Shown: in pieces, positions 1 through 21,364 of the stretch | Layout: every line of letters starts with the position of its first letter | Position numbering within the stretch: the first letter of the stretch is position 1 | Source of the DNA: a virus | Lineage: Duplodnaviria; Caudoviricetes | Virus record (IMG/VR): IMGVR_UViG_3300016662_000085 | Span: 1-28,334 of that record | Reading direction: 5' to 3' (one strand) | DNA length: 28,334 nucleotides | Notes under the pieces: model-generated | The model's database searches: none | Told to the model about the DNA's origin: nothing | The model's input: the letters and a program-made list of their open reading frames with translations, nothing else | Translations under genes and position numbers: made by a program

Positions 1-456
1 ACTTTTGGTGATTGCCATGATTTCATCACGGTCCCCACCAAATACCCGAACCATGTCAATTAAGGCGGATTTAATTCCAAATGTCGTATAATTACCAATA
101 TTACAAACATAATCAGCACCAAATGTTTTAGGTGCCCACTCGTTTTTAAGATAATCACGAACCATCGGAATGTAATCAACATCTATGTCAGGCAAGTCAC
201 CTGTGAAGACATTCGCAGGTTCACGATTGATATCGAAATCAGATGTAATTCCTAAAAGCCAACATACCAATAGGTTATTTTCATTTTTGGGGTAAAAAAC
301 CTTCTTGTCATAAAGATTAAGAAAATAGTCTTGTTTTTCCTTGCAAACTATTTCTTGACTTTCCCATTTGAACCTTTTTTTAAATGCCGGATCATCGGCA
401 AGCCCTTTTGAAACAAGAGCCTGCTCACAAAGTTGAATAAATCTTTCCTTGCTCAT
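1..456 (-). CDS. dnaE: DNA polymerase III alpha subunit, catalytic (C-terminal) half; partial, runs off the window edge
   Basis: Not in the ORF track; translated by hand from ATG at 456: MSKERFIQLCEQALVSKGL...QDYFL...LLVCWLLGITSDFD...GDLPDIDVDY...NIGNYTTFGIKSALIDMVRVFG. PDIDVD is the family-C polymerase catalytic motif. SD-like AAGGTGA at 460-466. Confidence 0.92.
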   Translation of the reverse strand, partial: MSKERFIQLCEQALVSKGLADDPAFKKRFKWESQEIVCKEKQDYFLNLYDKKVFYPKNENNLLVCWLLGITSDFDINREPANVFTGDLPDIDVDYIPMVRDYLKNEWAPKTFGADYVCNIGNYTTFGIKSALIDMVRVFGGDRDEIMAITKS

Positions 457-459
457 GAG

Positions 460-508
460 TCACCTTGTGGTTTTTGAGAATTCTACCACAAGGCTGTTTT
501 CAATCCAA
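460..508 (-). promoter_or_regulatory. Sigma70-like promoter (TTGGAT-17-TAGAAT, extended TG) overlapping a 9-bp inverted repeat that covers part of the dnaE-C SD
   Basis: -35 at 503-508, -10 at 480-485; inverted repeat CCTTGTGGT (463-471) / ACCACAAGG (485-493). Confidence 0.55.
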
Positions 509-1036
509 TAAGATTTCTTGACCATACTTGCTGTGAACTATGATTCTAAATGCCTCTAATTCGACTTGTTTTTCCTTCCAAACTTCCTTAAAGAACTTGA
601 TTGCCCTAGACTTTATCGTCTCTATCTGTGATGGTTCAGGATATTTATCAAAAAATATACCCACGCTAAATGGAGCGGTATTGATGTATTCATGATAATT
701 TGCTTCGCCAACCGGTTTTGCATGTCCCTCATCATTGATTGCATAATTTTTGTTCAATAAAACACAACATGGTGCCAAATCACCATGTTCATCTTCACGA
801 TCAACGATGTAACCAAGAAAAGGATTTTTATCCTCAGCACATAATCCATTTGAATCTTCATCACAAAGATTCATGTCTTCATAAAAAGATTCCGAATAGG
901 GACTAGTTACAAGACTTTCATGCACATATCCGGTACAGTAGGCAACAAGGTCTCTGTAAAATTCATGCGAATGAGAATTTGTATCCATCACAAAGATATA
1001 TTCTTTGTAAATTAAAACTGGCTCTGTCATTGTCAT
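500..1036 (-). CDS. Hypothetical protein (178 aa)
   Basis: Clean ORF, 4-nt overlap with the upstream AAA gene; no motif recognised. Confidence 0.75.
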   Translation of the reverse strand: MTMTEPVLIYKEYIFVMDTNSHSHEFYRDLVAYCTGYVHESLVTSPYSESFYEDMNLCDEDSNGLCAEDKNPFLGYIVDREDEHGDLAPCCVLLNKNYAINDEGHAKPVGEANYHEYINTAPFSVGIFFDKYPEPSQIETIKSRAIKFFKEVWKEKQVELEAFRIIVHSKYGQEILLD

Positions 1037-1992
1037 CTCCCGAATCCCATGGGTTTACGAACTTCATCATCCTTGGAACTAAGATTTTCTTCCCGCATAG
1101 CAGTCAATGTTTCAATTGCATCTTCGTAGCTATCGCCAAGGATGACAACCGCCACAAAAAGTTCTTTAAGATGGGCTATTGAAAACTCTTCCGTGTCATT
1201 AACCCATCTTTCTAAATCAATCTTGAGTTCTTCAACTTTTTCCTTACCACCGATTATAAACTCAAAGTAAATTCTTCTGCTCTCGGCATTAGGATGTCCA
1301 ATTTTAAATCTTTTGTCAAATCGACTTGGACGATTGATGATTCGATCACCCAAACGCTCTGGATAATTAGTTGTTGCCAAGAAAACAACTTTATCGATTT
1401 GATTTACACCATCAAGAACATTTAAAACTTCACTTTCAGAGTTAGTCTCAATGATTGAGTCAATGTCTTCCATTAAAACAACAAGAGGTGAATCAGGCTG
1501 AATTTCCCGTAGCTTTCTTACACCAGATATGAATGTGGATGGATTATTGAAGTTGATAACAACCCCACCTCTATCAATCACATCATGCATCAAAAGTTGA
1601 ATCGTTGAGCTTTTACCGCTACCTGCGGGACCATGAAGCATGATTCCACGCTTATACGCCAAGTTATAATCACGAAAAATCTTTTCCCTGCTCCAGAAAT
1701 TTTGAATTTCACTTATTATTCTAGATGAATTTGTTTCTGGAAAACGAATCAATCCTTGTGTAACTACAGGAACCTTTTCGAAAAATAGACCATTTGTCTG
1801 ATTGACTTTGATGTCATATACACCGGGAGTCAAGGCGGCAACTGTTTTAGAAGTTGGAAAAAAATGAATATGGTCAGAAGTAGACCATTGAGAACAATGA
1901 CTTACTTTATCGCTCTCTTCATTTATTTCTTTAAGGTAGTTTTTGCGGTTCTCAAAATTACTAAACAAGTCTTTGAGTCGGCTCACGCTCAA
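1033..1992 (-). CDS. AAA+ ATPase (single domain, BCS1/ATPase_AAA-like)
   Basis: Walker A HGPAGSGKS, Walker B VVLMEDID, sensor ATTN, Arg-finger RPSRFD, C-terminal MGF motif. Confidence 0.9.
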   Translation of the reverse strand: MSVSRLKDLFSNFENRKNYLKEINEESDKVSHCSQWSTSDHIHFFPTSKTVAALTPGVYDIKVNQTNGLFFEKVPVVTQGLIRFPETNSSRIISEIQNFWSREKIFRDYNLAYKRGIMLHGPAGSGKSSTIQLLMHDVIDRGGVVINFNNPSTFISGVRKLREIQPDSPLVVLMEDIDSIIETNSESEVLNVLDGVNQIDKVVFLATTNYPERLGDRIINRPSRFDKRFKIGHPNAESRRIYFEFIIGGKEKVEELKIDLERWVNDTEEFSIAHLKELFVAVVILGDSYEDAIETLTAMREENLSSKDDEVRKPMGFGR

Positions 1993-2363
1993 TCTCCCTT
2001 AACAAAACATTTTATTTTGTTTAGGTCACGAATCAAAGTGTCGTTTATATTAGTCCACCTCATATGATGGCCAAATACAAAATGACAATTTAAATTACGA
2101 TTCTCACATAATGTTATCAAATTATCAGGACAAAGTTCAAGTTCAGGATTTTCGGAAAATGATCTTATATGATGAACAGTTAGATTTTCAGGCGAGCCAC
2201 AAATCGCACAAACTGGATTTTCTAACAAATGTAAATTACGAACTTTTCTCCATTGAGAACTTCTTGGCGTTCTGCCAAGCATCTCAACCTTGGGTTGAAT
2301 GACACAATATTTGAAAATCGCAAAACCAAATAAAACTAAAAAAAATAAAGCTAGAATAATCAT
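1989..2363 (-). CDS. HNH endonuclease with a hydrophobic N-terminal segment
   Basis: WRKVR...CAICG...VHHI...NLITLC...CH pattern; N-terminus MIILALFFLVLFGFAIF. Confidence 0.8.
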   Translation of the reverse strand: MIILALFFLVLFGFAIFKYCVIQPKVEMLGRTPRSSQWRKVRNLHLLENPVCAICGSPENLTVHHIRSFSENPELELCPDNLITLCENRNLNCHFVFGHHMRWTNINDTLIRDLNKIKCFVKGD

Positions 2364-2369
2364 TGGGGA

Positions 2370-2765
2370 TCAAGTCATGTGTGGAACAGTACCATGTTGC
2401 TGAATGTACCTAGTGGTATCGGCTGTTTCCCTACCGACATCACCCGTGTAATCATGAGGCATAGTTGTACCTGTTGGTTTAGCTGGTTTAATTTTATTTA
2501 ACATGCCGGAAATTTGCACCAAGGTATTTTTGAGCACTTGCGTTTGTGAACTCAATGGCATACTTCTAGCTTTATTGTTAATATCGTTGTACTTGGTTGC
2601 AAAATCTTTCCAACGATCTTGATCAATGTCTTCTCTGGAAGTGTTTTGAATACTGACCAAAAGTGATTTGGCCTGACTGGAAAGATCGCCACCAGTCGTC
2701 CGTGAAAAAAAAAGTTCTTCATCACACTTAAATTTTAATTCCAGAAATTATTTAAATTTCAACAT
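2370..2765 (-). pseudogene. Capsid-targeting-motif protein interrupted by an in-frame TAA at codon 6 (or a 96-aa CDS from TTG 2660)
   Basis: ATG 2765 (AGGGA upstream) reads MLKFK*FLELKFKCDEELFFSRTTGG... and continues in frame into track ORF 2370..2660; the stop is at 2748-2750. Confidence 0.6.
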
Positions 2766-2786
2766 CGTTTCCCTTTTTTTGCAAAG

Positions 2787-3135
2787 TGGAGTCGAGCGGA
2801 CCTGCCCCGCTGTCTTCGCATCACTTCTTGTAAACCTCTACATGTTTAATTTGTCGTTTATTGTCATCTGTTCAGGAACAACAAATAAATCCCTCACAGC
2901 ACTATCAACTTTATCTCATCTAGTGACCGTTGACCTTCACTCTACCAGCCTATTTTTACAACAAACTTTCGGTCGCCACAGGCAGGCTACCTAAGTTCGT
3001 GACCGCAATCAAGCAGCCAAAGCGTAAACAGTTTCGCCAGTTAAGGCTTTAGTCGAATTTTTAAGAGGCCATTCGACCAACCTCTACATGCCATTTACAA
3101 GTCGTACATCCGAATCGAATTCTAATTACGACCCC
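2787..3135 (-). ncRNA. ssrA: tmRNA (one-piece, about 349 nt), tag (A)GETVYALAA
   Basis: 5' GGGGTCG pairs with 3' CGACTCC-A, including the G3.U alanine identity pair. T-stem AGCGG/CCGCT; pseudoknot 1 GAGG/CCTC plus GTCGAAT/ATTCGAC; helix 2 CTTGTAAA/TTTACAAG. Resume context TTAACT-GGC; tag ORF 3038-3009 ends ALAA-TGA. CCA not fully encoded. Confidence 0.95.
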
Positions 3136-3142
3136 GTACCTT

Positions 3143-3149
3143 TATTTAG
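3143..3149 (-). promoter_or_regulatory. T4 late-promoter-like box CTAAATA upstream of the tmRNA
   Basis: 7 nt upstream of the tmRNA 5' end; resembles T4 TATAAATA. Confidence 0.45.
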
Positions 3150-3215
3150 CATAAAATTTTTGAATTTAAGCCTTATATAGAAATATCAGGTCATTTTTAC
3201 ACTTGGGAGAAAAAA

Positions 3216-4247
3216 ATGGGATATATGTCATTTAACGAATATGTTGAAAAACAAAAGGGTCACAAGAAACCCAAGATTGCCGTAGTGCCAGATTATGAAG
3301 GTCCAACACCATCTGCTCCAGAAACTCCCAAAGGTGCGAAAAAAGGCGCTGTTCCATACAAAAGTGGCAAAGACGCTCCAGATCGTAATAAGGACGATGC
3401 TTCAGCTTTAGGCCACAAGGGTAAAAAAAGCGACCACTATATGCCGAAAGCAAAGCATCATGACACGACTCCCGGCACAGAGTTGAAATCCTATCCCCAT
3501 GTCAAAACCCAAGAATGGATTGAAAAAAATAAGAAATTATCTCTTGCCGAATTCACAAAAAAGATAAAAACCGAAAGATTTAAAGAACTTGGCGAAAACT
3601 CAACTCGTTCTTATGGATCAATCAAAGAATCAGTAGAATTCTGCAAAAGCGATAAATATGTGACTGATTTTATCCTTGAAATGCGAAGGCAAGGCGTTTT
3701 TGAAAAAGTTCTTGCTGCTATGATTCAACAAAACGAATCTTTCCGAGTCATCGGCAAAGTCATGCGTTACGATGAATCTTTCGCCCGTGCATTATTGATG
3801 AACATTACTGAAATTACCGCCGGTACTGTTGGCGACGAAGGCGAAGGCGAAGTTTCTGTTTCTGCTCCTATGGGTGATGAAGATCATGATGATATGGACC
3901 ATCATGATGATATGCATCACGACGAGGAAGGCGAAGATCATGAGGAAGGCGACGAAGATCATGATGAGGAAGGCGACGAAGATCATGATGAGGAAGGCGA
4001 CGAAGATCATGATGAGGAAGGCGACGAAGATCATGATGAGGAAGGCGACGAAGATCATGATGAGGAAGGCGACGAAGATCATGATGAGGAAGGCGAAGAT
4101 CATCACGATGATGAAGAATCACACGATGACGACCATCACGATGACATGCCCGAAGACGAGGGACCACAACCCAAGGAAAATAGCCCACTTATGAAGGCAA
4201 TGAAAAACAATCCAGAAATGATGAAAAGGATGATGGGCCAATATTGA
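3216..4247 (+). CDS. Putative head-internal/scaffold-like protein with basic N-terminal half and His/acidic repeat
   Basis: SD GGGAG; N-terminus MGYMSFNEYVE; EDHDEEGD repeats; followed by a terminator. Function is inferred. Confidence 0.8.
   Translation: MGYMSFNEYVEKQKGHKKPKIAVVPDYEGPTPSAPETPKGAKKGAVPYKSGKDAPDRNKDDASALGHKGKKSDHYMPKAKHHDTTPGTELKSYPHVKTQEWIEKNKKLSLAEFTKKIKTERFKELGENSTRSYGSIKESVEFCKSDKYVTDFILEMRRQGVFEKVLAAMIQQNESFRVIGKVMRYDESFARALLMNITEITAGTVGDEGEGEVSVSAPMGDEDHDDMDHHDDMHHDEEGEDHEEGDEDHDEEGDEDHDEEGDEDHDEEGDEDHDEEGDEDHDEEGDEDHDEEGEDHHDDEESHDDDHHDDMPEDEGPQPKENSPLMKAMKNNPEMMKRMMGQY
3954..4097 (+). repeat. 24-bp coding tandem repeat GAAGATCATGATGAGGAAGGCGAC, 5 perfect copies plus 1 near-perfect, with degenerate flanks
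   Basis: Directly visible; encodes EDHDEEGD. Confidence 0.95.
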
Positions 4248-4263
4248 TTTTAAAATAATTAAG

Positions 4264-4301
4264 AAAAAAAAGCCATGTGTTTAGATCACATGGCTTTTTT
4301 T
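4264..4301. terminator. Bidirectional intrinsic terminator
   Basis: A-tract, AGCCATGTG / TTTAGAT loop / CACATGGCT, T-tract; lies between convergent genes. Confidence 0.9.
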
Positions 4302-5694
4302 ATTGGGCCATCTCTTCTGGTGGTAAAGGATCGACATTTTTAAATTCAAGCACCAGCGATCTTCCGCCTCTAGCTTCGCTTAAAAATCGACTAAACAATA
4401 ATCCTTCCTTAACTGGATCAACACTTGTTATGCCAAGACAATAACAAATCAGAGAGCCAGCACACGATCCTCTAGCCGGTCCTACAGCTTGAGAACCGTC
4501 ACCATATCCCAAAAGTTGTACAGAAACTTTTCTCGCTTCATCAGTCATCATTTTTTGAATTAAAAAGTAACTGCTAAAACCTTTTCGTGTGATAAGACTG
4601 TATTCTTCCATCAATCTATTCAAATACTCCTTACCTTTTAGACCTCTCTTTGCCGCTCCATTCATAATTTCCTCTCGCAAACGCTCGTCAGCGTCAGGAA
4701 TAACAGGCAATTTTAAACTTCTGTCTAATGACACACCTTTGGCTTTTCTACAAATGTCTACCGTCGTTTTTTTTGCCTCACAGAAAAGTTCGTATGGAAT
4801 AATTTCTTTGTAATCAGACAGCCACTTGGAATTTAATTCCTCCTCTGATTTAAACCAAAGGTTTTGATCCTGTAGCTCAAAGAAATCTTGGTTTCCATCT
4901 TCTTTCATTGCTTTTTCAATATCATCTACTGTCCTGCCAGTTTGTATCATAAGCATATATCTTTGAAATTTACTATCTTCTTTATTACAATAATGGCAGT
5001 CGTTTGTCAGTATAATTTTAAGACCATAACGCTCTTTGGCTTTTACTATAAATGCGTCATAAGGTTTCTGTTTTTTAAAATCCAACAACATAATTTCAAG
5101 ATAAAAATGTTCTTTACCAAACATTTTAATATATCTTTCAACCATATCAAAAGCTAAATCTTCGCCACCTGTTTCAAAAGCCCTGCCTATTTCGCTTGCG
5201 TAACAGCAAGATGTAAAAATCAATCCTTCTTTCTGTTTCTGCAACTGTTCATAGTTAACTCTCGGTCTGAAATAATAACCCTTGGTCCAACCCCATGAAG
5301 ACAATCGTACAAGATTTTTATAACCCTCGTTGTTATAAGCTATTGCAAGCAAATGAGAACTTTTTCTAAATTCTTTTTTTTGCTCTTCATCCAGCGTTGT
5401 CATGAACTTTTTGCTATCTTCAGAACCATTAAATTCTGGTTGTAATCTATTGACATATAATTCAACAGCAAAGATAGGACTAAGTGTATCCTTGCCAAAT
5501 TTATCGTTAATTTTTTCACATGCACGAATTTGTCTTGGCACAGCACCTAGCATTCCGTGATCAGATATTGTCAAAAACTTTTGATTGATTTGTGGCGCAC
5601 GGAGGGCATATTCTTCACAAGTTCCCAGTCCATCAAGAACTGAGAAATCGGTGTGTAAATGAAGATGCTCAAAACCTACTATCTCAAGTGTCAT
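4300..5694 (-). CDS. dnaE: DNA polymerase III alpha subunit, N-terminal half (PHP domain plus start of the polymerase domain)
   Basis: HLHLHTDFSVLDG, ISDHG, HLLAIA, YLEI and TNDCHY (PHP metal ligands); GFSSYFL; GPARGSCAGSLICYCLGITSVDP; LLFSRFL. Ends before the PDIDxD motif. Confidence 0.93.
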   Translation of the reverse strand: MTLEIVGFEHLHLHTDFSVLDGLGTCEEYALRAPQINQKFLTISDHGMLGAVPRQIRACEKINDKFGKDTLSPIFAVELYVNRLQPEFNGSEDSKKFMTTLDEEQKKEFRKSSHLLAIAYNNEGYKNLVRLSSWGWTKGYYFRPRVNYEQLQKQKEGLIFTSCCYASEIGRAFETGGEDLAFDMVERYIKMFGKEHFYLEIMLLDFKKQKPYDAFIVKAKERYGLKIILTNDCHYCNKEDSKFQRYMLMIQTGRTVDDIEKAMKEDGNQDFFELQDQNLWFKSEEELNSKWLSDYKEIIPYELFCEAKKTTVDICRKAKGVSLDRSLKLPVIPDADERLREEIMNGAAKRGLKGKEYLNRLMEEYSLITRKGFSSYFLIQKMMTDEARKVSVQLLGYGDGSQAVGPARGSCAGSLICYCLGITSVDPVKEGLLFSRFLSEARGGRSLVLEFKNVDPLPPEEMAQ

Positions 5695-6356: not shown

Positions 6357-6695
6357 TCACAGAGAATAGCTTGAACCACAACCGCAAGTGGATTTTGCGT
6401 TGGGATTAGAAACCGTGAACCCACGATTATTTATTTCAGTCTGAAAATCAATTGTTGCACCATCAAGATAAATTGCGCTGCGTTTGTCAACAACAACATC
6501 AACGCCATTTAAGTGAAATTTTTGATCTGTGGTTTCATTGAAATTGTCGTCAATCGCCAATTTATTTTGAAATCCACTACACCCACCACCGACAACACGA
6601 ACACGCAAGAAACATCCTTGGTCGGGCATATTCTCTTTAATTATGCGTTTGACTTCATTGGCTGCAACTTCAGTAATATTGATTTCCATATTCAC
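6357..6695 (-). CDS. iscA: A-type Fe-S cluster carrier (HesB/IscA/ErpA family)
   Basis: ITEVAA, LRVRVVGGGCSG, IDF, NPNAKSTCGCGSSY with the three conserved Cys. Start may be 6689. Confidence 0.93.
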   Translation of the reverse strand: MNMEINITEVAANEVKRIIKENMPDQGCFLRVRVVGGGCSGFQNKLAIDDNFNETTDQKFHLNGVDVVVDKRSAIYLDGATIDFQTEINNRGFTVSNPNAKSTCGCGSSYSL

Positions 6696-7174: not shown

Positions 7175-10078
7175 TTAGAATAACTGCCCCAATTTTTTCC
7201 TATCAATCAATTGAACGAAATTCGGTGTGTTGCCATTGCAATAGTAAATTCTTTCTCTTCCTTTATCATCCTTGGTTGACAACATTACATCATTATTCCA
7301 AATCACACGCAAGGAACTTAAAACATCAGCAAGATACGGCTCATACAAGCCACGACCGTCACTTTGATGCTCAAGCATCATGATTCCACGACCAGCATAA
7401 TTAGGTTCCGTTAACTTGATATCAGGCAAACCACCGTTTAAATACCTCCGCATCAACATATTCTTGATCTGCATATAATCACGACTTTCAAGCCTGAATT
7501 CCCCATTTGGATATTTCTTCCAATGGAAATATTCATGCTTTCGGCAAAACTCCTCCGTGAAAAACTCATGAATAAATGTCAAATCATCATAATACTTCCT
7601 AACCTCAAATATCTTTTCCTTGCCCAGATTCGTAGGAATGTTCCAATTTTCCTTCTTATGCAAATCCGTGCATTCCTCGTACTCCTGACCAAATCTGCCT
7701 TTGTCCCATCTCTCACGAATATCTGCCAGCAAATAGTAACCCAACTTGTAAGGGTTCATCGAATATTTGCCACCAAGAACGCCCATTTTATGATGAGCAT
7801 ACTCCACAATTCCACAATCATGACTGCTTTGACCTAGACCAATAAGGCCCATTTCAGTCATGATTACTGAATCCGTTGTACTGGCCCAACCTTCGTTCAT
7901 TACCTTAGTTTGGCGTTGCGGGAAGAAATATAACGCCTCGTCATACAACATCGAAACGATATCTGCTTGCCAAGGCTTCAAAGGCGCATTATCTCTCAAA
8001 AATCCAAGAATGTTCTTAGTTGGATTCTTGAAAAATCCAAGTTCATCAGCGATATCCCTTTCGTGACTCTTCTGATTTTCACGCTTTTTATATTCATTTG
8101 TGTTTACAAAAGGCTCCATATAAAGCCTTTCGTTGCTCACATGAAGACGCTTCGGTGTTCGATACTTTCGTTCATCACGGATGTTTCTGTCTCTGACTAC
8201 ACGCTCTGTCCATGCTTCTGCCCCATCAATCAATGTTTCAAGCCGCATGACATGATCAAGGAATTCAATAACTCGTTCCTTGCCCCAACGAGTCATGTAC
8301 TTGCGAATTCTCGTTCCATGATTCGCCATCTTGTTCATCATGTTCGTATCGGTCGCAGAAAAATGAATATTATTCTTGAAAAAATCATTATGACCAATTG
8401 CATGAGCAACCACAGTTAAGTGATCAGCCAATGTATTAGAGGCAAGATTATAAATATAACATGGATTGGTATTGTGAGAAATAAGTCCATTTGCCAAGAA
8501 GTCATGCTCATCATGATCCAAAGCAATGTCTATGGTTTCTTGTTTTTCCTCATATATTTCAACTGATGAAACCACAAATACAGGCTTCTCAACCAATTTT
8601 AATAAATCGCCAAATGTATCTTCGTATCCAGACTCTACTGCATGATTAAGAAAACCCCACAGAGCGTTTGATGTCATATTTTTTTCTAATTTTCTCCTGC
8701 GCCACCTGTATATGCTCTCTGGAGGTCTATCCATTTGATCAATTCTTTCAAACACATTTTCCATAACACCCGGCAACGGTTGCCCACGACCTGAACGACC
8801 ATCTTTAGAGGCTAAAACATCGAACGCTTTTGCTTTGTAATCCAACGAAAAACCAATATGTTGAGCAAACAGACGGATATTTTTTTTGCCTTTTACTGTC
8901 AAGATTGCAATATCATTATGTTTATTTTTTACCCTGAAAACTTTCGATCTAATTCCCATTTCAAGCAGCAATAATTGGACATCATTTGCCAAATCATCGT
9001 TGAAACAACTTAGACTAAGCGTTTTTCCACAATGTCCATCTGTATCAAATAGACCTCTTATAAATGCAGCTCGATATTCATTAGACGAAGCCCAAATAGA
9101 CCAAGGAACTCTTTTGTTTTTATATGTGCATCCATTATTCAGCCCAGCAGAATTCATGAAATCAACAGCAAACTTGCTGCAAAGAACTACATTGTTTACA
9201 GAGTCTTTCTTTTGATGTATTGCAGGTTGTCTTGAAAAAACCTTATAAAATAAATCTGCAATTCTTTTTTGATATTCAACTAATGGTTTGTGAACGCAAA
9301 CGCTCAAAATTTGCGAGGCCAGCCTTACTCCAACAGAACCATCGCCAGCAAGCATACCCATGAGTTCTGCCAACTCAAGAGTCATGTTTTTAGGAGGATT
9401 TATTTCTAACAATCGGTTTCTGACATTTTTTCTTGTCTCAGAAATAATTTTGTCAGGAGACCATTCAATTTTTGCCGGTTTATTTAAAAAGTATCCATAT
9501 TCACTCCCCGCCTGAATAACATCACCAGATTTTATATCTTTTGTTTCAACCCAAACTGATTTACCATTTCTTACGCATTTCCACTTGTGATTTGGAGTGC
9601 AAACAATTTTATTGCCTAATTCTTCGCAGGTTATTTCCATGACTTGTGACGGTTTTTGCCTTTTTACGGCAACCACATCACGCCATCCACTCGGACCCAT
9701 TACCTTGTCACCAACCAAAACTTCGTCAGCCCTTTTTCTTCCATCTTGCGTCAAGATACTTGTTGCAAGTTCACAACAATTCACTACCATTTCGTATATT
9801 TTATGTCCTCCGAATTCATATCCTCTTTGCAATTCCTCATATTCCATGCCGAAGGACCAATGCGGGAATCGCACAGGGAATCCACCGTATGCTGCAATTT
9901 CTGAAATCTCGTCATAAGTTAAAAGTTGAACGATTGTGGGATAAAAGTCCAGACCCCAATCACGACAAGCTTTAAAAACAATAGGCAAAAGTTCTTTTAA
10001 TTCTTTGGGAAGCTGAACACCGGGAACGGTATTATTTCCCAACAACAAGCTTGAGCCATGAAAGAATTTGCTGGACAT
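7175..10078 (-). CDS. spoVR: SpoVR/YcgB family protein containing an intein (531 aa after splicing)
   Basis: GLDFYP, AAYGGFPVRFPHWSFG, KIYEMVVN|TNPC, AHAIGHNDFFKNN, YFFPQRQTKVMNEGWAS, NPYKLG; downstream of prkA and yeaH. Confidence 0.95.
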   Translation of the reverse strand: MSSKFFHGSSLLLGNNTVPGVQLPKELKELLPIVFKACRDWGLDFYPTIVQLLTYDEISEIAAYGGFPVRFPHWSFGMEYEELQRGYEFGGHKIYEMVVNCCELATSILTQDGRKRADEVLVGDKVMGPSGWRDVVAVKRQKPSQVMEITCEELGNKIVCTPNHKWKCVRNGKSVWVETKDIKSGDVIQAGSEYGYFLNKPAKIEWSPDKIISETRKNVRNRLLEINPPKNMTLELAELMGMLAGDGSVGVRLASQILSVCVHKPLVEYQKRIADLFYKVFSRQPAIHQKKDSVNNVVLCSKFAVDFMNSAGLNNGCTYKNKRVPWSIWASSNEYRAAFIRGLFDTDGHCGKTLSLSCFNDDLANDVQLLLLEMGIRSKVFRVKNKHNDIAILTVKGKKNIRLFAQHIGFSLDYKAKAFDVLASKDGRSGRGQPLPGVMENVFERIDQMDRPPESIYRWRRRKLEKNMTSNALWGFLNHAVESGYEDTFGDLLKLVEKPVFVVSSVEIYEEKQETIDIALDHDEHDFLANGLISHNTNPCYIYNLASNTLADHLTVVAHAIGHNDFFKNNIHFSATDTNMMNKMANHGTRIRKYMTRWGKERVIEFLDHVMRLETLIDGAEAWTERVVRDRNIRDERKYRTPKRLHVSNERLYMEPFVNTNEYKKRENQKSHERDIADELGFFKNPTKNILGFLRDNAPLKPWQADIVSMLYDEALYFFPQRQTKVMNEGWASTTDSVIMTEMGLIGLGQSSHDCGIVEYAHHKMGVLGGKYSMNPYKLGYYLLADIRERWDKGRFGQEYEECTDLHKKENWNIPTNLGKEKIFEVRKYYDDLTFIHEFFTEEFCRKHEYFHWKKYPNGEFRLESRDYMQIKNMLMRRYLNGGLPDIKLTEPNYAGRGIMMLEHQSDGRGLYEPYLADVLSSLRVIWNNDVMLSTKDDKGRERIYYCNGNTPNFVQLIDRKKLGQLF
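8471..9778 (-). mobile_element. Intein (436 aa) with LAGLIDADG homing endonuclease, inserted in SpoVR
   Basis: Starts at Cys101 (CCELATSILT); block B CTPNHKW; LAGLIDADG motifs LMGMLAGDG and FIRGLFDTDG; ends FLANGLISHN followed by Thr +1. Confidence 0.95.
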
Positions 10079-10079
10079 A

Positions 10080-10604
10080 TTAAACTCCTAGACCGATTAC
10101 AATCAAAGGATTTTGATAATTAAGATCATCAAGTTTTTGAACTATTTGTTGAAAACAACCGGGACCAGAACTCATTCTATATTGTAAAGCTTTTGATGGT
10201 ACGATCAAAACACCCAAATCTATAATTTTTAGAAATTTATTGAATATTTCAAATTTCATAACATTGTCTGGCATAAATGAATATTTGCCAAACTGCAACT
10301 CACAAGCCACACGATTTTTCAAAAAGTCAACTTCGTAACTTCCACTTCGCTTATTGCCGGAATTGTAACGAAAACTGTGCTTGTAAGATTTCCAATCTTT
10401 GTCACGCAATATGTATTTTGTTTGCTTATTACAGGACTTGGGACAAAAAAGCATTTGTCCGTTGCGTATTTTTTCTTTACAAGATTTTAGAAATAATTGC
10501 TTTGCATCGATGGATTCAAAAACATTTTTCAATTCTTCTAACAAAACCGTATGTTTTTCCCAAACTGTTTGATCTGGATAACATTTAATTTCTTCAAATC
10601 GCAA
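10080..10604 (-). CDS. BglII/BstYI-like PD-(D/E)xK restriction endonuclease-family protein
   Basis: EVDFLKNRVACELQFGKY (D...ExQ active-site variant); TTG start with SD GGGAG inside the yeaH end. Confidence 0.75.
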   Translation of the reverse strand: MRFEEIKCYPDQTVWEKHTVLLEELKNVFESIDAKQLFLKSCKEKIRNGQMLFCPKSCNKQTKYILRDKDWKSYKHSFRYNSGNKRSGSYEVDFLKNRVACELQFGKYSFMPDNVMKFEIFNKFLKIIDLGVLIVPSKALQYRMSSGPGCFQQIVQKLDDLNYQNPLIVIGLGV

Positions 10605-10606
10605 AA

Positions 10607-11821
10607 CTACTCCCGATGAATTTTATTTGGATTCCCAAGAAGCTGCTGGATAGCTTCAATAATTTGTTCATTTCTATTTTCTTCACTCAAAGCTGGTGCA
10701 GACCACATAGGTTTGCCATCAGCACTCCCACCAACCTGAACTGTTCGCACACATTCACGATCAAGTTTTCCGTTCTTGATTGCTTCATCAACATGAAATT
10801 TGACCGAGTCACCATAAGAAGATGCAAGAATTTGAGCGATTCCAGTAAAATTCACAATATGAGGCTTAAACTCATTAGCTAAAGTTTCAATGAAAATCTG
10901 GTTGTCTTCGCCCCAGTTCTCTCCATCCGTAAAGTAAAAAACATAAACATTCCATTTATCAGGAGGATATCTGTTTTCAAATTGTTTAGTGATAAATTTT
11001 AAAGCTGATGAACAAGTGGTTCCACCACCAAAACGATATTTGTAAAATTTCTGTTCGTCTACTTCCATAGCCTCGCTGTCATGCCACACATATAACCTGT
11101 CAACCCTATCATAAAAGCGACGAATCCAAACATCGATCCACCAAGCCATATCGCTCACGATTTCGCACTTGGCATCATCCATCGATCCCGAACCATCACG
11201 GGCAAATATCACCAAAGCATTGCTGCTTGGCAATTTAATCTCGCTGTATTGACGATAACGCTTGTCTTCATTGATTGGCTGAAGCACACGCACAGGGTCT
11301 TTACAACCCGGCACAATCTTAGTGTTAGCAATTGTGCCCTCAGCAGCTTGTCGCTTTAAAGTCTGCTTGAGTGTGCGCCTGTTATGCCTAAGCGATTCTG
11401 GTCCGATGAGTGAAATCTTATTGTATTTGATTTTCACTTCATCATAGATTTCATTTGGCTTCTTCTTTAAATTTGGCAATTCCAATTCATCTTGCATGAA
11501 CCTCAAGACATCCTCAAGGTCAAGATTGATGGTGATTCCTTCTGCTTCTCCTTGTCCCGCTCCATTTCCTTGACCTTGACCTTTTGGGTCTTTGCCTACA
11601 ACATCGCCTTCCTTGCCGGGACCACGACCGATGCCCTCGCCACTTTCGCCATAAACAATGTGAGGAATATCAATTTTGGGAATGGAAATGGAAATCTTTC
11701 CATTCTTGCCACGATTGCGAACAATCTGACCACTCTTGATAAATTTCTTGAGCGCCTTACGGATGCGTCCCGACACCACATCACGAAAGTCCTTGTGATC
11801 TTCCTCTACACGGCGGGGCAT
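10607..11821 (-). CDS. yeaH: YeaH/YhbH (DUF444) vWA-domain protein
   Basis: Gly-rich linker GRGPGKEGD, ELELPNL, MIDAS-like DGSGSM, GGTTCSSA, YFTDGENW; between prkA and spoVR. Confidence 0.93.
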   Translation of the reverse strand: MPRRVEEDHKDFRDVVSGRIRKALKKFIKSGQIVRNRGKNGKISISIPKIDIPHIVYGESGEGIGRGPGKEGDVVGKDPKGQGQGNGAGQGEAEGITINLDLEDVLRFMQDELELPNLKKKPNEIYDEVKIKYNKISLIGPESLRHNRRTLKQTLKRQAAEGTIANTKIVPGCKDPVRVLQPINEDKRYRQYSEIKLPSSNALVIFARDGSGSMDDAKCEIVSDMAWWIDVWIRRFYDRVDRLYVWHDSEAMEVDEQKFYKYRFGGGTTCSSALKFITKQFENRYPPDKWNVYVFYFTDGENWGEDNQIFIETLANEFKPHIVNFTGIAQILASSYGDSVKFHVDEAIKNGKLDRECVRTVQVGGSADGKPMWSAPALSEENRNEQIIEAIQQLLGNPNKIHRE

Positions 11822-11835
11822 TTTTTACCTCTTTG

Positions 11836-12051
11836 TCAAACAGTTTCCAAATCAAAAGAACATACCATTTCATCAATGTCGGAAGAAAAATTCTTAATCC
11901 TCATGGCAAACAGAAGATCAGTTTCTTCATCATTTAAAGAAGCGAAAAAATCACCTAATGTTCCATCAGATGCCCAAGTATCCATAGCGATCTTATCGAT
12001 GTCACTAAGAAGTTGCTTGATTTTTGCATTATTTAACCAATGATTCTGCAT
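11836..12051 (-). CDS. Small acidic hypothetical protein inside the prkA operon
   Basis: SD AAGGAG upstream; exactly fills the prkA-yeaH gap. Confidence 0.7.
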   Translation of the reverse strand: MQNHWLNNAKIKQLLSDIDKIAMDTWASDGTLGDFFASLNDEETDLLFAMRIKNFSSDIDEMVCSFDLETV

Positions 12052-12060
12052 TTTTGCTCC

Positions 12061-14139
12061 TTATTCTTCTTCCGCAAGATCACCACGGCTAAAGATAGAA
12101 CCAACAAAATCAAGGACATCTGTAGCTGATCTTTCGTTGTAGCCAAAATCCTTGATAAGCCTTGTCTTGACCGCATCAATCTTTTCTTGCAAATCCTTGT
12201 CAACAACAGTTGCTCCACTCATGTTCAAAGCGGATAGCTTGATTGTATCTTTTACATCTTCAAAAAGTTTTGCCTCAAGAGCCTTCCTCAACTTGGGATT
12301 TGAATCCCATTGGAAACTCTTGCCTTCGTGAGCAAGATGACCGATGAAAGCGGCAATCTGACGGCGGAAATCATCACATCCAGTATCAGGAATTTGAATC
12401 TTTTCCTCAATCTGACGCATGAGCCTTTCATCTGGCTTACGGTCCTGACCCGTGATTGGGTCTTTAATTTTGCTCTTGTTGATGTATGCCATCACATTGT
12501 CAATGTAATTTGTGCAAAGACGCTTGATTGCTTCTTTATCTCCAACCAAAGCTTTTTGAACCTCCGCTTTAAGAATATCTGTAAGCTTCTTTACAGCAAG
12601 GTCGATACAAGTGATGTAACGACCAACTTGTTCTTTGTTGGTAAGAAGAGAACTATGATCCAAACCGTCACGCAACTCATTTAAAACCATGAACATATTG
12701 ACATAATCATGGTTGTTAGCGAGACAGTTGGAAATCTTGTCCTGAAGATAACGAACGGATACTCCACCGCTCATGCCTTCATCTGGATACTTATCCTTCA
12801 ATTCCTTGACGGCTTCTTCGGTCCAACCGGGAAGCAACTTGCCGTCATAAAGTTCTGCTTTTTCAACGAGCGAAAGCTTTCCATCCTTATCGTCTGCTAG
12901 GCGTGTGAGAATACTCCACAAAGCAGCAATTTCAAGAGTGTGCGGGGCAATATGCTGACGCACTTTGCCGGGACCATAGTCCTTTTCCAAAATACGGAGT
13001 TCTTCGTTCCACTTTAGTGTGTATGGAACATCGATCTTGGTAGTACGGTCACGGAATGCTTCCATGTACTGATTGCTCTTCAACTTCTGGAACTCAGGGT
13101 CGTTGGTATGCGCCAGAATTGCTTCGTCAATGCTGACTTGAGCGAACTTCTTTGGCTTAATGCTTTGTTCTTGGGATGCTCCAAGAAGGTCATATAGAAA
13201 TGCTGTGTCGAGTTTAAGTGCTTCAATAAACTCGATAATTCCCCTATTTCCGCAGCAGAATTCACCATCAAAGGAGAATGCTCGGGGATCGGAATCTGAA
13301 CCAAAATTACCGATTTGGCGGAAATTGATGTCGCCAGTCAATTCAGTCGAATCTTGATTCTTTTCATCCTTTGGTTGGAAGGTTGCAATGCCGCAACGAT
13401 CCGCTTCGGAATAAACCTTGCGAACTACACGAATGTGTTTTTCAAGAACTTTTTCAAGATCGCCATCATAACGCTTAAGCAACTCATTCATGAACTTCTT
13501 GCACAAGGGATCAAGTTCATCGCTGCATTTAAGTGTGTAAAGGTCTGGTCTTTCGTTTGGAGGTGTCAGGCTTTCATGAATTTTGTTGAGTTCATCAACA
13601 ATTTGTTGCCTCATATCAAGCGGGAGAAGCTTGAGCGGCTGTTCATGCATCGGGCACTCGCATTCGGTGTCCGTAAACAATCCATCTGATCCTGTAGGAA
13701 GATCAACCCATTTGAAACTGTACCATGCACCTTCATTGGTATGGCTGTACTTTTCCATACTCCTCTTTATGAGTCGGCAAATGGTTGACTTGCTGCTGCC
13801 AACTGGTCCGTGAAGCAGAAGGATGCGCCTCTCGGTTCCATAACCTCCAGCAGCGCCTTTAATAAACTTAACAAGCGCATCTTTCATGGGAGTGAGTCCG
13901 ATGATCGGATAGGATGGATCATCGAAAAACTTGTAATTTGTGTATGTCTTGCGATATTCTTCAACAGTCTCGCTGCCTTTATCCATGATCATGTCATAGA
14001 TGGTTTGCCAAGCGTTGCGAATGAGTTTGGGGTTTTTGTAGCAAAGTTCAAGATAGTCGCTGAAACTCATTTCAGCATGAATTTCACGAAAACGCTCACG
14101 GTTAAAGTTACCAATGATCCTTTGAAGTGCGCTGCTCAT
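12061..14139 (-). CDS. prkA: PrkA/YeaG AAA+ ATPase (serine protein kinase family)
   Basis: Walker A LHGPVGSSKST, DSDPRAFSFDGE, NRGIIEFIE, EAFRDR, IAPHTLE. Start set at ATG 14139 (SD GGGGAG) rather than the track start 14172. Confidence 0.95.
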   Translation of the reverse strand: MSSALQRIIGNFNRERFREIHAEMSFSDYLELCYKNPKLIRNAWQTIYDMIMDKGSETVEEYRKTYTNYKFFDDPSYPIIGLTPMKDALVKFIKGAAGGYGTERRILLLHGPVGSSKSTICRLIKRSMEKYSHTNEGAWYSFKWVDLPTGSDGLFTDTECECPMHEQPLKLLPLDMRQQIVDELNKIHESLTPPNERPDLYTLKCSDELDPLCKKFMNELLKRYDGDLEKVLEKHIRVVRKVYSEADRCGIATFQPKDEKNQDSTELTGDINFRQIGNFGSDSDPRAFSFDGEFCCGNRGIIEFIEALKLDTAFLYDLLGASQEQSIKPKKFAQVSIDEAILAHTNDPEFQKLKSNQYMEAFRDRTTKIDVPYTLKWNEELRILEKDYGPGKVRQHIAPHTLEIAALWSILTRLADDKDGKLSLVEKAELYDGKLLPGWTEEAVKELKDKYPDEGMSGGVSVRYLQDKISNCLANNHDYVNMFMVLNELRDGLDHSSLLTNKEQVGRYITCIDLAVKKLTDILKAEVQKALVGDKEAIKRLCTNYIDNVMAYINKSKIKDPITGQDRKPDERLMRQIEEKIQIPDTGCDDFRRQIAAFIGHLAHEGKSFQWDSNPKLRKALEAKLFEDVKDTIKLSALNMSGATVVDKDLQEKIDAVKTRLIKDFGYNERSATDVLDFVGSIFSRGDLAEEE

Positions 14140-14237
14140 AATATCTCCCCGCCAAAGTGTACGGATTCCCAAAACAATTATAAGTCAGTAAATAAAATAA
14201 AAAAAGAAAATAAAAACAAAGATGTGAAAACCAAGCA

Positions 14238-16794: not shown

Positions 16795-17050
16795 GCTACA
16801 TAGCTTTATGGAAACTATGCACGAAATGTTCTTAACAATTGCAGTCATTTTATTCATTGTGACAATTTATACAACACTTTTTTTACTTAGCAGACCAAAA
16901 TCATGCGAATGTAAGCAATGCTTAGTCGCCTGCAAGTGTGGCTGCGCTTGTTGTTCAATTGACGGTACATGCAGTCTAAAAGGACTTTGTTGTGAAAACT
17001 GCACATGCTGCTACGGATGTGGTATGGCAAATGGAAATTGCATTTGCTAA
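16769..17050 (+). CDS. Membrane-anchored Cys-rich (metallothionein-like) protein
   Basis: One hydrophobic helix, then 17 Cys in the last 48 aa; start uncertain. Confidence 0.65.
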   Translation: MMDKNIGTKLHSFMETMHEMFLTIAVILFIVTIYTTLFLLSRPKSCECKQCLVACKCGCACCSIDGTCSLKGLCCENCTCCYGCGMANGNCIC

Positions 17051-18465
17051 CTCTTAATCTTTTCAATAATTTTACTTGAAGATAAACCTTCTAAAATAGG
17101 TAAACGAACCACCTCTGGCACAATTCCATAACCAACAATTTGATCTATTTTATAATCACCACCTTTTGCAACTACATCAGGCATGACTTCCCTGATTAGT
17201 CTTTCAGGTGTTTGTTCATTAAATGGAACAACAAAATCAACATATTCACAAGCCTGCAAAGCTGCCATTCTTTGCTCTAACGGCAATACTGGTCTTCCCG
17301 GCTTCAAAGCAGAAACACTTTCATCAGTATTCACGGCTACCATGAGTTTATCTCCATGACTTTTTGCCGCTTTAAATGAATGCAAATGCCCAGCATGAAG
17401 AATATCAAAACAGCCATTTGTCATGACAAGTTTATAGTCTCGTTTGGCAAAGAAATTTTTGGGATTATGAATGAATTTCGCTGCTACTGGATCAATGCTT
17501 TTGTTAATCTCATAATGACTTAAAGGCTTATTGTGTTTATTTCGCACATAAATCAAACCAGCTTCGAACGCTATCTCAACCGCTTTGATTAGATTGAATT
17601 TTCTTGCTAAAGCCATGGCTAAGAAAGCCACAAAACAATCTCCAGCACCAATTACCGATTCAGGTTTGTCTACAAACTTTTTTGGTTTTATTTTCTCAAT
17701 CTTACCATTTTCAAAAATTGTTACACCTTCACCTGATTCAGTAATTACAACAGCACATTCAAGCTCTGAAGACAACATATTACCCGCATCAACTAAAGTA
17801 TTTTTCTTGGTTAACCGAAGTGCTTCATCACGATTAGGTTTAAATACTGTACAACCTTTCCACCGACGAAAATCACCATCTTTAGGATCAACAATCGTGA
17901 TAGGTGCCGTTTCAAATATCCAACTTTGTAAATTATTGAAAATGCCTTTGTCATAATCCGTCAAAATTAAACAATCCAAGTAATTCTTATTCTGATGTAT
18001 GGAATTATAAAGAGATTGAGAAAACTGATTGAGACAATCATTTTTTAAATGATAATCTTTACCTTCAACATCCCATCTAAAAATCGGATAATTTTCTGCG
18101 AAGAATCTTTTCTTGCGAGGGATATCAAATTCTATTTCTTTACAATTTTCAACTGTTAATCCGTGAGTCAAAAAAATATCCCGTGAACTTTGATCCACAA
18201 AAGAAAATAATGGGGCGTTTACATTAAAATTAACAAATTGATAAGCAACATTTGCGGCACCGCCGGGAAAAGATCGTGGTAAATTTTTTGCCGTCTTGGC
18301 AACAGGAATTGGCGATTCTTGTGAAAGCTTTTTTACTGAAACATCGTAATATTCATCAACCATCGCATCGCCTAGAACGGCGATCTTTATTTTTGGTCCG
18401 TGTAAATCATGATTTAGAAAGGTAAGAATGTTTTCCATTGACAATTCTCTCTTGAATAATATCAT
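17047..18465 (-). CDS. hldE: Bifunctional heptose-7-phosphate kinase / heptose-1-phosphate adenylyltransferase
   Basis: VLGDAMVDEY, PGGAANVA, DYDKG, VDPK, KPNRDE, GAGDCF (PfkB domain); TNGCFDILHAGH and KGGDY (nucleotidyltransferase). Start may be ATG 18438. Confidence 0.92.
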   Translation of the reverse strand: MILFKRELSMENILTFLNHDLHGPKIKIAVLGDAMVDEYYDVSVKKLSQESPIPVAKTAKNLPRSFPGGAANVAYQFVNFNVNAPLFSFVDQSSRDIFLTHGLTVENCKEIEFDIPRKKRFFAENYPIFRWDVEGKDYHLKNDCLNQFSQSLYNSIHQNKNYLDCLILTDYDKGIFNNLQSWIFETAPITIVDPKDGDFRRWKGCTVFKPNRDEALRLTKKNTLVDAGNMLSSELECAVVITESGEGVTIFENGKIEKIKPKKFVDKPESVIGAGDCFVAFLAMALARKFNLIKAVEIAFEAGLIYVRNKHNKPLSHYEINKSIDPVAAKFIHNPKNFFAKRDYKLVMTNGCFDILHAGHLHSFKAAKSHGDKLMVAVNTDESVSALKPGRPVLPLEQRMAALQACEYVDFVVPFNEQTPERLIREVMPDVVAKGGDYKIDQIVGYGIVPEVVRLPILEGLSSSKIIEKIKS

Positions 18466-18485
18466 AGAGTTTTCTGGAGGTAATC

Positions 18486-18587
18486 ATGGCACAAATAATT
18501 CTAAGTCTCATGTTTTTTGTAAATAACTTTGGTTTTAAAATGACTGACCCAAAGCCAGAAATTATGACTGTGACGAAGGAATATTGA
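18486..18587 (+). CDS. Possible 33-aa small protein
   Basis: GGAGG SD 5 nt before the ATG; MAQIILSLMFFVNNFGFKMTDPKPEIMTVTKEY; overlaps the thyX 3' end convergently. Confidence 0.35.
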   Translation: MAQIILSLMFFVNNFGFKMTDPKPEIMTVTKEY

Positions 18588-19455
18588 TTCCTAACAATTT
18601 TGCTTTCTCAAGCCATTCTGCTTGTTCACGCTTATTGTTAGTAGCAATCAACGGGACTTCTACTTGCCATGCGTGTTGCTTCATAAAACTCGACAAAGCC
18701 TCTACTTCTAAACGAGTTAATTTAATTGCTCCACGCATCGGATGGTAATCTTCCCATGCTTCAACAGCTACTGGCACGACTTGTCGTAAAAGCTCAATAA
18801 TAGCTTCGGCATAAACTCTAATTTCTTTCTGAGCATGAGAGTCTGCTCTCAAGGCAAGAAAGTGGAAAAGATTATGGAGATCAATTTTCCAATACCACTC
18901 AGTATAAAGATTTAATGGTAAAATCATTCTTGCTTGTTCACGGGACATTCCAGAATCAATCATCTTCATGTAAATTTGATAGGCTTCATTACTTTCATCA
19001 ACGAGTGTGTTTACAAATTCAGTTGCTGTTTCAAAATCAAGCTCTTCTGAGCCGCCTTGTCTATTATTAGAAGATTGTTTTCTAAAATCACAAGCAAATG
19101 GAAAATAAAACTCATCTTTCATAATTGAATAACGAGCTGATATCTCATTATAGCTGCTTGCACGATGACGAATCCATTGCCGTGCGACAAAGATCGGCAT
19201 CATACAATGGAATTTTAAGGTGACCATTTCTAACGGCGTAGTGTGAGAGTGACGAAGAAGATAACGGATCAAACCTTTATCTTCGTTGACGGTTTTAGTT
19301 CCATCCCCGTAGCTTACTCTGGCAGCTTGAACAATTGCATAGTCTGCGGTTTTTCCTTCTGGAACAACTCTTGGCATGACATCAACAAGAGTGACATGAC
19401 CTTTATCAAGGCAGCGAATTGACTTGTTGGCGACCTGATCCATGATATCTGGCAT
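18562..19455 (-). CDS. thyX: Flavin-dependent thymidylate synthase
   Basis: AARVSY, HTTPLE, ARQWIRHRASSYNEISARYS, EQARMILP, HAQKEIR. Start at ATG 19455 (SD AAGGA), downstream of a promoter. Confidence 0.96.
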   Translation of the reverse strand: MPDIMDQVANKSIRCLDKGHVTLVDVMPRVVPEGKTADYAIVQAARVSYGDGTKTVNEDKGLIRYLLRHSHTTPLEMVTLKFHCMMPIFVARQWIRHRASSYNEISARYSIMKDEFYFPFACDFRKQSSNNRQGGSEELDFETATEFVNTLVDESNEAYQIYMKMIDSGMSREQARMILPLNLYTEWYWKIDLHNLFHFLALRADSHAQKEIRVYAEAIIELLRQVVPVAVEAWEDYHPMRGAIKLTRLEVEALSSFMKQHAWQVEVPLIATNNKREQAEWLEKAKLLGINIPSSQS

Positions 19456-19489
19456 GATGATTTCCTTTATGGAGGAAGCAATCAAAAAA

Positions 19490-19517
19490 ATTATAAGAGC
19501 CAGATTTTTTTTGTAAA
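19490..19517 (-). promoter_or_regulatory. Sigma70-like promoter for thyX (TTTACA-16-TATAAT)
   Basis: -35 at 19512-19517, -10 at 19490-19495. Confidence 0.6.
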
Positions 19518-19519
19518 GA

Positions 19520-19681
19520 TTAGTGTTTGTGTTTTCTTTTATGCTTTTTAATTGGACGACCACCAATCATTTCAGGTGCTGATCTTACAAAAGGACCACC
19601 AAATAAAGGCATGGCAAATGTGGCAACAGATGCGGTGCTTGTTCCAACTTCTTGAAGTTTAAGCCATTCTTTGAATGTCAT
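19520..19681 (-). CDS. Small protein (53 aa) with capsid-targeting-like leader and basic tail
   Basis: MTFKEWLKLQEVGT...IKKHKRKHKH; TAATG stop-start overlap with the upstream gene. Confidence 0.75.
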   Translation of the reverse strand: MTFKEWLKLQEVGTSTASVATFAMPLFGGPFVRSAPEMIGGRPIKKHKRKHKH

Positions 19682-20133
19682 TACATACCACCCATAGCAC
19701 CACCAGCAGCGTTTTGAACAGCAGGAGTCCAACCTTTTGTTAAAAAGTCAGTAAGCTGATCTCGATCTAAGTGATACCGTGTTTTATCAGGTTTTTTGCT
19801 TTTGTTTAACATATTGCCAGCTAAATAACTTCTATCGCCTTTACGGGGTACAAGCATAATGTCTGCCCCGTGCTTGGAAAGAGTTCCCGGTACTATTTTC
19901 CACGCAGATGCCTTATAAATTTTTTCGCCCAATCCGAAATGAGTTGAAACCCAAGGCTCACCCTCAAAGACATTTATAATATCGTGCCAAGACAATCCTT
20001 GCTCGTCAGATAATGCATCAAAATAATCTTCCTTATCAGAAGACTTATCTTCTTTGCTGCCTTCACGATTTTTCTCAGGAGAAGGGTCCATCTCTTCTAA
20101 GAACTGTCTAAAAGTAAAAGTTGATTGGTACAT
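19681..20133 (-). CDS. Hypothetical protein with capsid-targeting-like leader
   Basis: MYQSTFTFRQFLEEMD; CATATATA (20139-20146) lies 5 nt before the ATG. Confidence 0.8.
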   Translation of the reverse strand: MYQSTFTFRQFLEEMDPSPEKNREGSKEDKSSDKEDYFDALSDEQGLSWHDIINVFEGEPWVSTHFGLGEKIYKASAWKIVPGTLSKHGADIMLVPRKGDRSYLAGNMLNKSKKPDKTRYHLDRDQLTDFLTKGWTPAVQNAAGGAMGGM

Positions 20134-20160
20134 ATGTGTATATATGATATGAGGACATAT

Positions 20161-21218: not shown

Positions 21219-21364
21219 AAATTCTTGACGAAAAAATAACCCATCGCTGTTGCTCTAAAGAAAGCGGTGTGCGTTGGCTTCAAGGCGCATATCCACATAT
21301 TGGTGAAATTATTCAAGGAAAAACAGGCATTGAAACAGTACAAAAATTTACACGAATTCTAAAA

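Follow-up and report, generated by a model that had tools for sequence, protein, structure and literature searches.

The window analysed here, a 28,334-nt fragment of a phage genome (IMG/VR record IMGVR_UViG_3300016662_000085; Duplodnaviria, Caudoviricetes), encodes the DNA polymerase DnaE in two minus-strand genes. The N-half gene (4300..5694, minus strand) codes for 464 amino acids (aa) with a PHP domain, an N-terminal palm subdomain and a conserved tail; Pfam search placed PHP at residues 10-202 and DNA_pol3_alpha at residues 338-442, which correspond to positions 2-98 of that profile. The open reading frame (ORF) of the C-half starts at 456 on the minus strand and leaves the window at its edge, matching positions 98-163 of the same profile from residue 85. 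Its polymerase core begins within 1..192 (minus strand), with PDIDVD at 192-175. An earlier note on this DNA had described the pair as a split DnaE without intein and called for the missing part of the C-half, which we could recover: the 152 C-half residues of the window agree in full with the beginning of P0132, a complete C-half protein of 909 aa with fingers, HhH and OB regions (PF17657 and PF14579, plus OB-fold matches at about 771-890 by structure comparison). The two genes lie 3,843 nt apart, and DnaE is thus not one polypeptide in the window.

In the DnaE palm, the GS motif and arginines bind the deoxynucleoside triphosphate and aspartates bind metal. We found these residues divided reciprocally between the two genes, as had been proposed. 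R408, G409, S410, R436 and R442 are invariant in 99/99 N-halves, and D90, D92, D94, K247 and D249 are invariant in 99/99 C-halves, so that the three catalytic aspartates (D90 and D92 of PDxD, D249 of KxD) all belong to the C-half. The motif [RK]GS occurs in none of 144 leaders, the leader being the first 88 residues of the C-half, and DxD occurs in only 1 of 213 N-half tails. Alignment to the Thermus aquaticus and Mycobacterium tuberculosis DnaE also revealed a PHP metal-ligand set in the N-half (H12, H14, D21, H46, E78, H114, C164, D232 and H234; 4993..5661, minus strand). Six of these ligands (H46, E78, H114, C164, D232 and H234) are invariant in the 99 N-half rows, while H12, H14 and D21 are kept in 72, 76 and 89 of them, the other rows being mostly gapped at the N terminus. 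The composition of such a nine-ligand site is given in a passage of PMC5636811. Intein families (HINT) matched neither half, in keeping with the intein-free split first described, and the motifs quoted at that time are all present in the window sequence. Judged by its PHP ligands, RGS and palm arginines, catalytic aspartates and fingers, HhH and OB regions, the predicted product of the two genes is a DnaE of family C.

Each half carries an additional piece at the cut. The leader of the C-half (residues 1-88; 193..456, minus strand) is a degenerate duplicate of the N-terminal palm segment in which NxNNL replaces RGS, and it ends in the invariant G86. Its counterpart by profile alignment is the palm segment 337-424 of the N-half, which includes R408-G409-S410 (4423..4686, minus strand). 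The earlier note had read the leader as a copy of the preceding palm region without RGS; this was borne out between profiles but not pairwise. BLASTP of the N-half against the C-half was not significant (best E 0.022 over 10 aa), whereas HHalign matched the leader profile to all 24 single-chain references with a probability of 96.3% (E 1.8e-9, about 70 columns), to 9 outgroup DnaEs with 95.1% (E 3.3e-8, about 70 columns) and to N-half residues 337-378 with 86.6% (E 4.5e-6). As controls for the last alignment, 30 column shuffles gave at most 5.1% and the reversed alignment 0.1%. A second match of the leader profile in the N-half fell at 414-424, and the second segment of the leader taken alone reached only 46% over 11 columns. 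When a leader hidden Markov model was run over 4,600 ORFs, the best non-leader matches were the N-half palm segment. DnaE PHROG 405 was matched by 14 of 23 leaders at E up to 1 (best 0.0023), and an LLGITxxDP-like motif, which in DnaE comes after the RGS helix, is kept in 16 of 150 distant leaders. Searched against solved structures, the leader profile did not find DnaE and gave a single unrelated match (E 0.24). The leader also has invariant residues of its own, namely Y44, N58, N61 and G86.

The N-half ends, after R442, in a tail (GGRSLVLEF...; 4303..4368, minus strand) that may represent a degenerate DxD strand preceded by a Gly-Gly hinge. This tail had been called short and unrelated; it is indeed short, but "unrelated" did not hold, as the tail is strongly conserved with the pattern R-G-G-[RK]-x-h-x-h-x-F. 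GG is present in 209 of 213 tails, which were chosen by a pattern that already required the first G. The h-x-h-x-F part lies nearly in register with the DxD strand but lacks the two catalytic aspartates, and the sequence is suggestive of a degenerate copy of that strand. Uncorrected ratios of nonsynonymous to synonymous changes (pN/pS) for the leader were 0.04 and 0.08 in two close pairs, 0.29-0.37 in four distant pairs and 0.39 when pooled, compared with 0.40 for the tail and 0.23-0.24 for core segments. By these estimates, leader and tail are both under purifying selection.

Results showed that related phages share the breakpoint. The N-half was found at 48 viral loci, of which L007 is single-chain and the other 47 hold N-half ORFs, one of them cut by a contig end. 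In a homolog search restricted to proteins of 255-812 aa, 119 of 120 homologs among the matches listed end at most 35 residues from the FxRF-type motif; among longer proteins, a second search found chiefly N-halves that bear inteins and end in the same tail, together with a group of single-chain proteins. Both halves with the same breakpoint are visible in 41 distinct IMG/VR contigs (a hand count, several being near-identical), and a distant lineage (L129-L131) has the same cut, its N-halves ending in RGG-F/Y-ML-x-V. The leader profile matches 226 clusters at 50% identity. Gap sizes are 970-9,323 nt in 25 loci, 817 nt in L129 and about 15 kb in G003. Over 26 pairs, distances among N-halves and among C-halves covary, with a Mantel r of 0.79. 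Two of five short contigs, which are 9-10% complete, yielded no C-half, and a metagenome scan with P0483 gave no match.

Two ways in which the split could have been spurious were also addressed. In each of five large genomes of the split form, which measure 225-527 kb and of which two are at least 90% complete, PF07733 matches exactly twice, once per half, and a third full-length dnaE was found in none of the five, which speaks against the two genes being decaying fragments beside an intact copy. Misassembly is excluded by the 41 related contigs and by contigs from other runs (X4 and X5), which match at 99% or more across the N-half stop and across the C-half start and show no joints; none of their pieces reaches over the entire stretch, and the study they come from may include the window's source. 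No RNA data set was listed as containing the sequence, a negative without bearing on its expression.

Several variants of the arrangement were seen in passing. Among L001 (15591-20480), L023, L028, L080 and L131, several C-halves and the N-half of L131 are broken again at other sites with intein-like ends, giving a dnaE in three or four pieces. One C-part piece of L043 lies on the opposite strand. P0411 has an unrelated domain of about 170 aa at its N terminus, to which a C-half is fused. Leader-bearing C-halves occur in three bacterial genome bins (L126, L127 and L128), which are probably mis-binned phage contigs. The dnaE of Rossellomorea phage phiT1 (L107, 3486-6768) is annotated as two genes of 573 and 469 aa, with a different break and a 49-codon ORF between them.

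We modelled each half alone with AlphaFold2. The C-half reached a mean predicted local distance difference test (pLDDT) score of 84, with the leader modelled confidently as helices and with residues 83-95 (DxD) and 234-250 (third Asp) below 50. The N-half reached a mean of 86.6, with residues 440-457 below 50. In these models, the most conserved pieces at the junction lack a confident partner in their own chain, which is what folding onto the other chain would predict.

Single-chain relatives gave a second view of the junction. Many split loci have the gene order SpoVR, N-half, 343-aa gene, AAA ATPase gene, C-half, and four single-chain contigs (L007, L061, L063 and L064) have SpoVR, 343-aa gene, AAA ATPase gene, full gene. 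At their junction, the single-chain proteins retain the N-half segment with RGS and read R-x-D-x-PD, without leader or tail, which supports that both halves act as one enzyme. Split and single-chain forms are 52-65% identical.

We asked in which direction the change had gone. First trees conflicted, the split forms being monophyletic at 89 in one N tree and paraphyletic in others. When 80 further C-halves were added, the single-chain forms fell inside the split lineage. With 42 rows of the C part, picked after seeing the larger tree, split monophyly was rejected by the approximately unbiased (AU) test (p-AU 0.00046) and the single-chain forms stood in two places; their own monophyly was not rejected (p 0.185), and two independent re-fusions are therefore not established. 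A quick tree of the N part (41 rows, after four outgroup and six intact rows had been dropped) also rejected split monophyly (p-AU 0.015), with a long-branch warning. Gene order gives no direction of fission versus fusion, and it excludes re-fusion by one simple deletion. Leader and RGG tail are common to deep and shallow split forms, so that a single old split with later re-fusion is a simpler account than identical splits made several times. Altogether, the trees point to single-chain relatives that arose by natural re-fusion inside the split lineage.

We therefore propose, with a probability of roughly 0.75, that the two genes encode complementary halves of one DnaE that assemble unspliced as a non-covalent heterodimer, whose active site would be built from two chains. 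We favour such a heterodimer over the other possibility raised in the earlier note, a stand-alone PHP protein beside a remodelled polymerase. The RGS/Arg subdomain of the N-half would dock on the DxD sheet of the C-half as it does in single-chain DnaE, and the PHP domain of the N-half would proofread. The arrangement would have originated in one ancient duplication overlapping the palm, followed by reciprocal loss that left either copy with half of the catalytic motifs, and the single-chain relatives would reflect a later re-fusion that dropped both leftovers. The tail strand may pair with the leader to form a swapped, dead half-palm, hinged at Gly443-Gly444 and at Gly86, that clamps the dimer; we consider this a little short of an even chance. 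More tentative still, with the odds against it, is the complete scenario of a duplication-born two-chain DnaE whose tail/leader pseudo-palm clamps and possibly gates the active site, which served as ancestral replicase of a very large giant-phage lineage and which was precisely re-fused at least once, possibly twice.

Some observations weigh against this proposal. Binding and activity of the heterodimer are deduced from sequence and from models of single halves, and the low-pLDDT argument comes without a single-chain control model. The lone C-half model superposes from its residue 1 on residue 287 of E. coli alpha (Z 23.2, root-mean-square deviation 7.0, 535 aligned residues), which is compatible with a leader occupying the native site of its own chain. 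The mirrored N and C distances are expected from shared descent alone. Homology between the tail and the DxD strand is frame-dependent: in nine settings, it ranked between 1 and 43 among about 1,170 positions. With the 26 split pairs, and with four long outgroups dropped, split monophyly was not rejected (C part, AU p 0.54), and the re-fusion result rests on a deep lineage and on long outgroup branches. Moreover, DnaE is not the sole polymerase gene, as a PolA-like gene of about 420-445 aa accompanies it in 5/5 split-form genomes.

The superposition from residue 1 is what a self-sufficient, remodelled C-half would give, in which the leader takes the place of the N-terminal palm, the N-half being a PHP proofreader of its own, like epsilon beside E. 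coli alpha. In the model, that leader retains the palm segment's helical pattern at pLDDT near 90, and its own set of invariant residues would suit such a role. However, it lacks [RK]GS in every one of the 144 cases, whereas RGS and both arginines, which a pure proofreader would not need, persist in all 99 N-halves; the DxD and third-Asp strands are not confidently placed in the lone C-half model, and the single-chain relatives use the N-half segment and not the leader. We consider this explanation unlikely. The PolA-like gene brings in another one, that the pair does assemble, yet serves as an accessory enzyme, in repair or in something other than polymerisation, and that genome replication falls to the PolA-like protein or to a host enzyme. 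An accessory role beside PolB was proposed for a minimal split Pol III in the consulted part of Iyer 2021 (PMC7824862), and section 13 of PMC11348598 (Yutin 2024) describes divergent PolAs alongside regular polymerases, of which the PolA-like proteins here are reminiscent. On the other side, PolB was found in 0/5 split-form genomes (two at least 90% complete), and the PolA-like proteins are short with altered motifs, being 422-444 aa with HDG in motif C in split and single-chain relatives alike (L114 798-2132, L115 846-2114, L116 839-2152). Their gene is present in 4/4 single-chain relatives too, and so does not compensate for the split; it was not called in one further split genome. The pair also retains all catalytic and PHP residues, and purifying selection excludes decay. 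An accessory or non-polymerase function seems improbable to us, even if, given the co-occurring PolA-like gene, it is not safe to call the split DnaE the sole polymerase or the main replicase.

The heterodimer also has to be weighed against ways of rejoining the halves. Conserved, placed precisely at the cut and missing from the single-chain relatives, tail and leader could fit an unrecognised protein trans-splicing element that would join the halves and excise itself. We give such an element very little credence, however: HINT matched neither half, the tail starts with Gly-Gly and the leader ends in G-[DE]-x followed by Pro, the Cys/Ser/Thr and Asn/Gln that inteins need (residues as given in a passage of PMC2677866) are absent at the cut ends, and the leader is explained as a palm duplicate. 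Joining at the RNA level, through an intron, trans-splicing or ribosomal bypass, has in its favour nothing beyond the halves usually sharing one strand in order. The gap between them contains a terminator-like hairpin, an opposite-strand gene and a transfer-messenger RNA (tmRNA), its size ranges from under 1 kb to about 15 kb, and the C-part piece of L043 is inverted; moreover, leader and tail are conserved as protein, and their being translated and selected, as the pN/pS ratios indicate, argues against RNA splicing. Since contigs from other runs match without joints, an assembly artefact fares no better, and RNA-level joining or an artefact together have hardly any chance of accounting for the split.

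We also looked at the genes between and around the halves. A terminator-like hairpin of 15 pairs followed by a T run, identified by consensus scan only, lies at the N-half stop codon (4265..4301, minus strand). It is followed by the 343-aa gene (3216..4247, plus strand), found in the gap here and upstream of dnaE in single-chain relatives; its conserved product has an acidic His-rich repeat (tandem DEDHDEEG) and no Pfam match, and assemblies break at the repeat. The tmRNA gene (2784..3135, minus strand) was recovered by an E-value scan (Rfam RF00023, 94.3 bits, E 2e-37) and was missed by ARAGORN and by the Rfam gathering-threshold scan; its tag reading ends in GETVYALAA and its T-loop is atypical. 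An HNH-domain ORF (1989..2363, minus strand) is absent from most related gaps, having homologs only in L005 and in the L006/L051/L066 contig among the loci compared. Judged by this one family, other endonuclease families not having been screened, an HNH endonuclease between the halves is not constant. The AAA ATPase gene (1033..1992, minus strand) lies in the gap of split forms and directly upstream of dnaE in single-chain relatives, and a 178-aa gene (500..1036, minus strand) is often immediately upstream of the C-half in related loci. A 10-pair hairpin at about 462-495 (minus strand) covers the AAGG ribosome site of the C-half and has a TG-n-TAGAAT box at its loop. With a predicted energy of -15.3 kcal/mol, equalled or exceeded in stability by 3% of shuffles, it could silence read-through transcripts. 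A promoter of the C-half's own was not established, as an extended -10 element was present in 8 of 24 against 3.9 expected and a consensus score of at least 9 in 5 against 2.4.

Beyond the two halves, a PrkA, YeaH (DUF444) and SpoVR cluster (7175-14172, minus strand) lies upstream of dnaE, as it does in most relatives. SpoVR in the window bears a LAGLIDADG intein and is preceded by a BglII-like endonuclease ORF. An Fe-S biosynthesis gene is found at 6357-6695, and the region 17047-23480 (minus strand) encodes a PfkB and cytidylyltransferase fusion, ThyX, a TnsA-like endonuclease and glycosyl- and methyltransferases. A DEAD-box-type helicase is encoded at 25046-27067.

If the proposal holds, these phages would offer a natural example, open to testing, of an essential polymerase gene splitting with neither an intein nor a dead intermediate, in that an overlapping stretch is duplicated and each copy then loses one set of catalytic motifs. 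In the consulted part of Dassa 2009 (PMC2677866), the lack of viable intermediates is presented as an open problem and the cyanobacterial break is called irreversible. Split and apparently re-fused forms stand here side by side and would allow a direct comparison of fission and fusion, and the cut shows where within the Pol III palm a split is tolerated. The split also accounts for the annotation of these phage genes as fragments, and it is widespread in a large group of uncultured giant phages. We found no literature report of a full-size split DnaE, most subscription papers lying outside the search and the supplement of Iyer 2021 possibly listing members; the consulted parts of PMC3919608, PMC12926913, PMC4889955 and PMC11348598 do not mention such a form.

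Compared with known systems, the phage pair has the domain order of single-chain DnaE1 with an active PHP exonuclease, represented by M. tuberculosis DnaE1 (5lew/7pu7) and T. aquaticus Pol III alpha (2hpi), with which it has in common the PHP ligands, RGS, the arginines, the three aspartates and the fold; it differs in that a cut within the palm gives two genes and that the halves bear a duplicated leader and a conserved tail. Split gp43 polymerases of T4-like phages, cited in the introduction of PMC2677866, belong to the unrelated family B, and duplicated leftovers are not mentioned in that passage. In cyanobacteria and in metagenomic fractured genes, dnaE likewise stands in two genes, sometimes with an endonuclease between, according to the consulted part of Dassa 2009. 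There the products are rejoined by split inteins, whereas HINT halves and splicing residues are absent at the cut described here; some relatives of the window phage do carry split inteins at other dnaE sites. A published precedent comes from group 2.2 jumbo phages, whose Pol III alpha is minimal and split without an intein, and for which the part of Iyer 2021 (PMC7824862) consulted describes an N-terminal unit that binds NTP and a C-terminal unit that binds Mg in phages that lack other Pol III domains and carry PolB. Putative N units of that enzyme in Atu_ph07, GAP32 and RaK2 (177, 188 and 172 aa) stop at PF07733 positions 95-98, at the boundary that is also cut here (position 98), and its C unit was sought in 4 genomes and not found. 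Those N units have neither PHP nor RGG tail and the window N-half has both; the enzyme here is of full size and PolB does not accompany it in the five genomes searched. Relative to this precedent, the full size of the enzyme and the N-half tail are different, and the nesting of single-chain forms in the split lineage is new.

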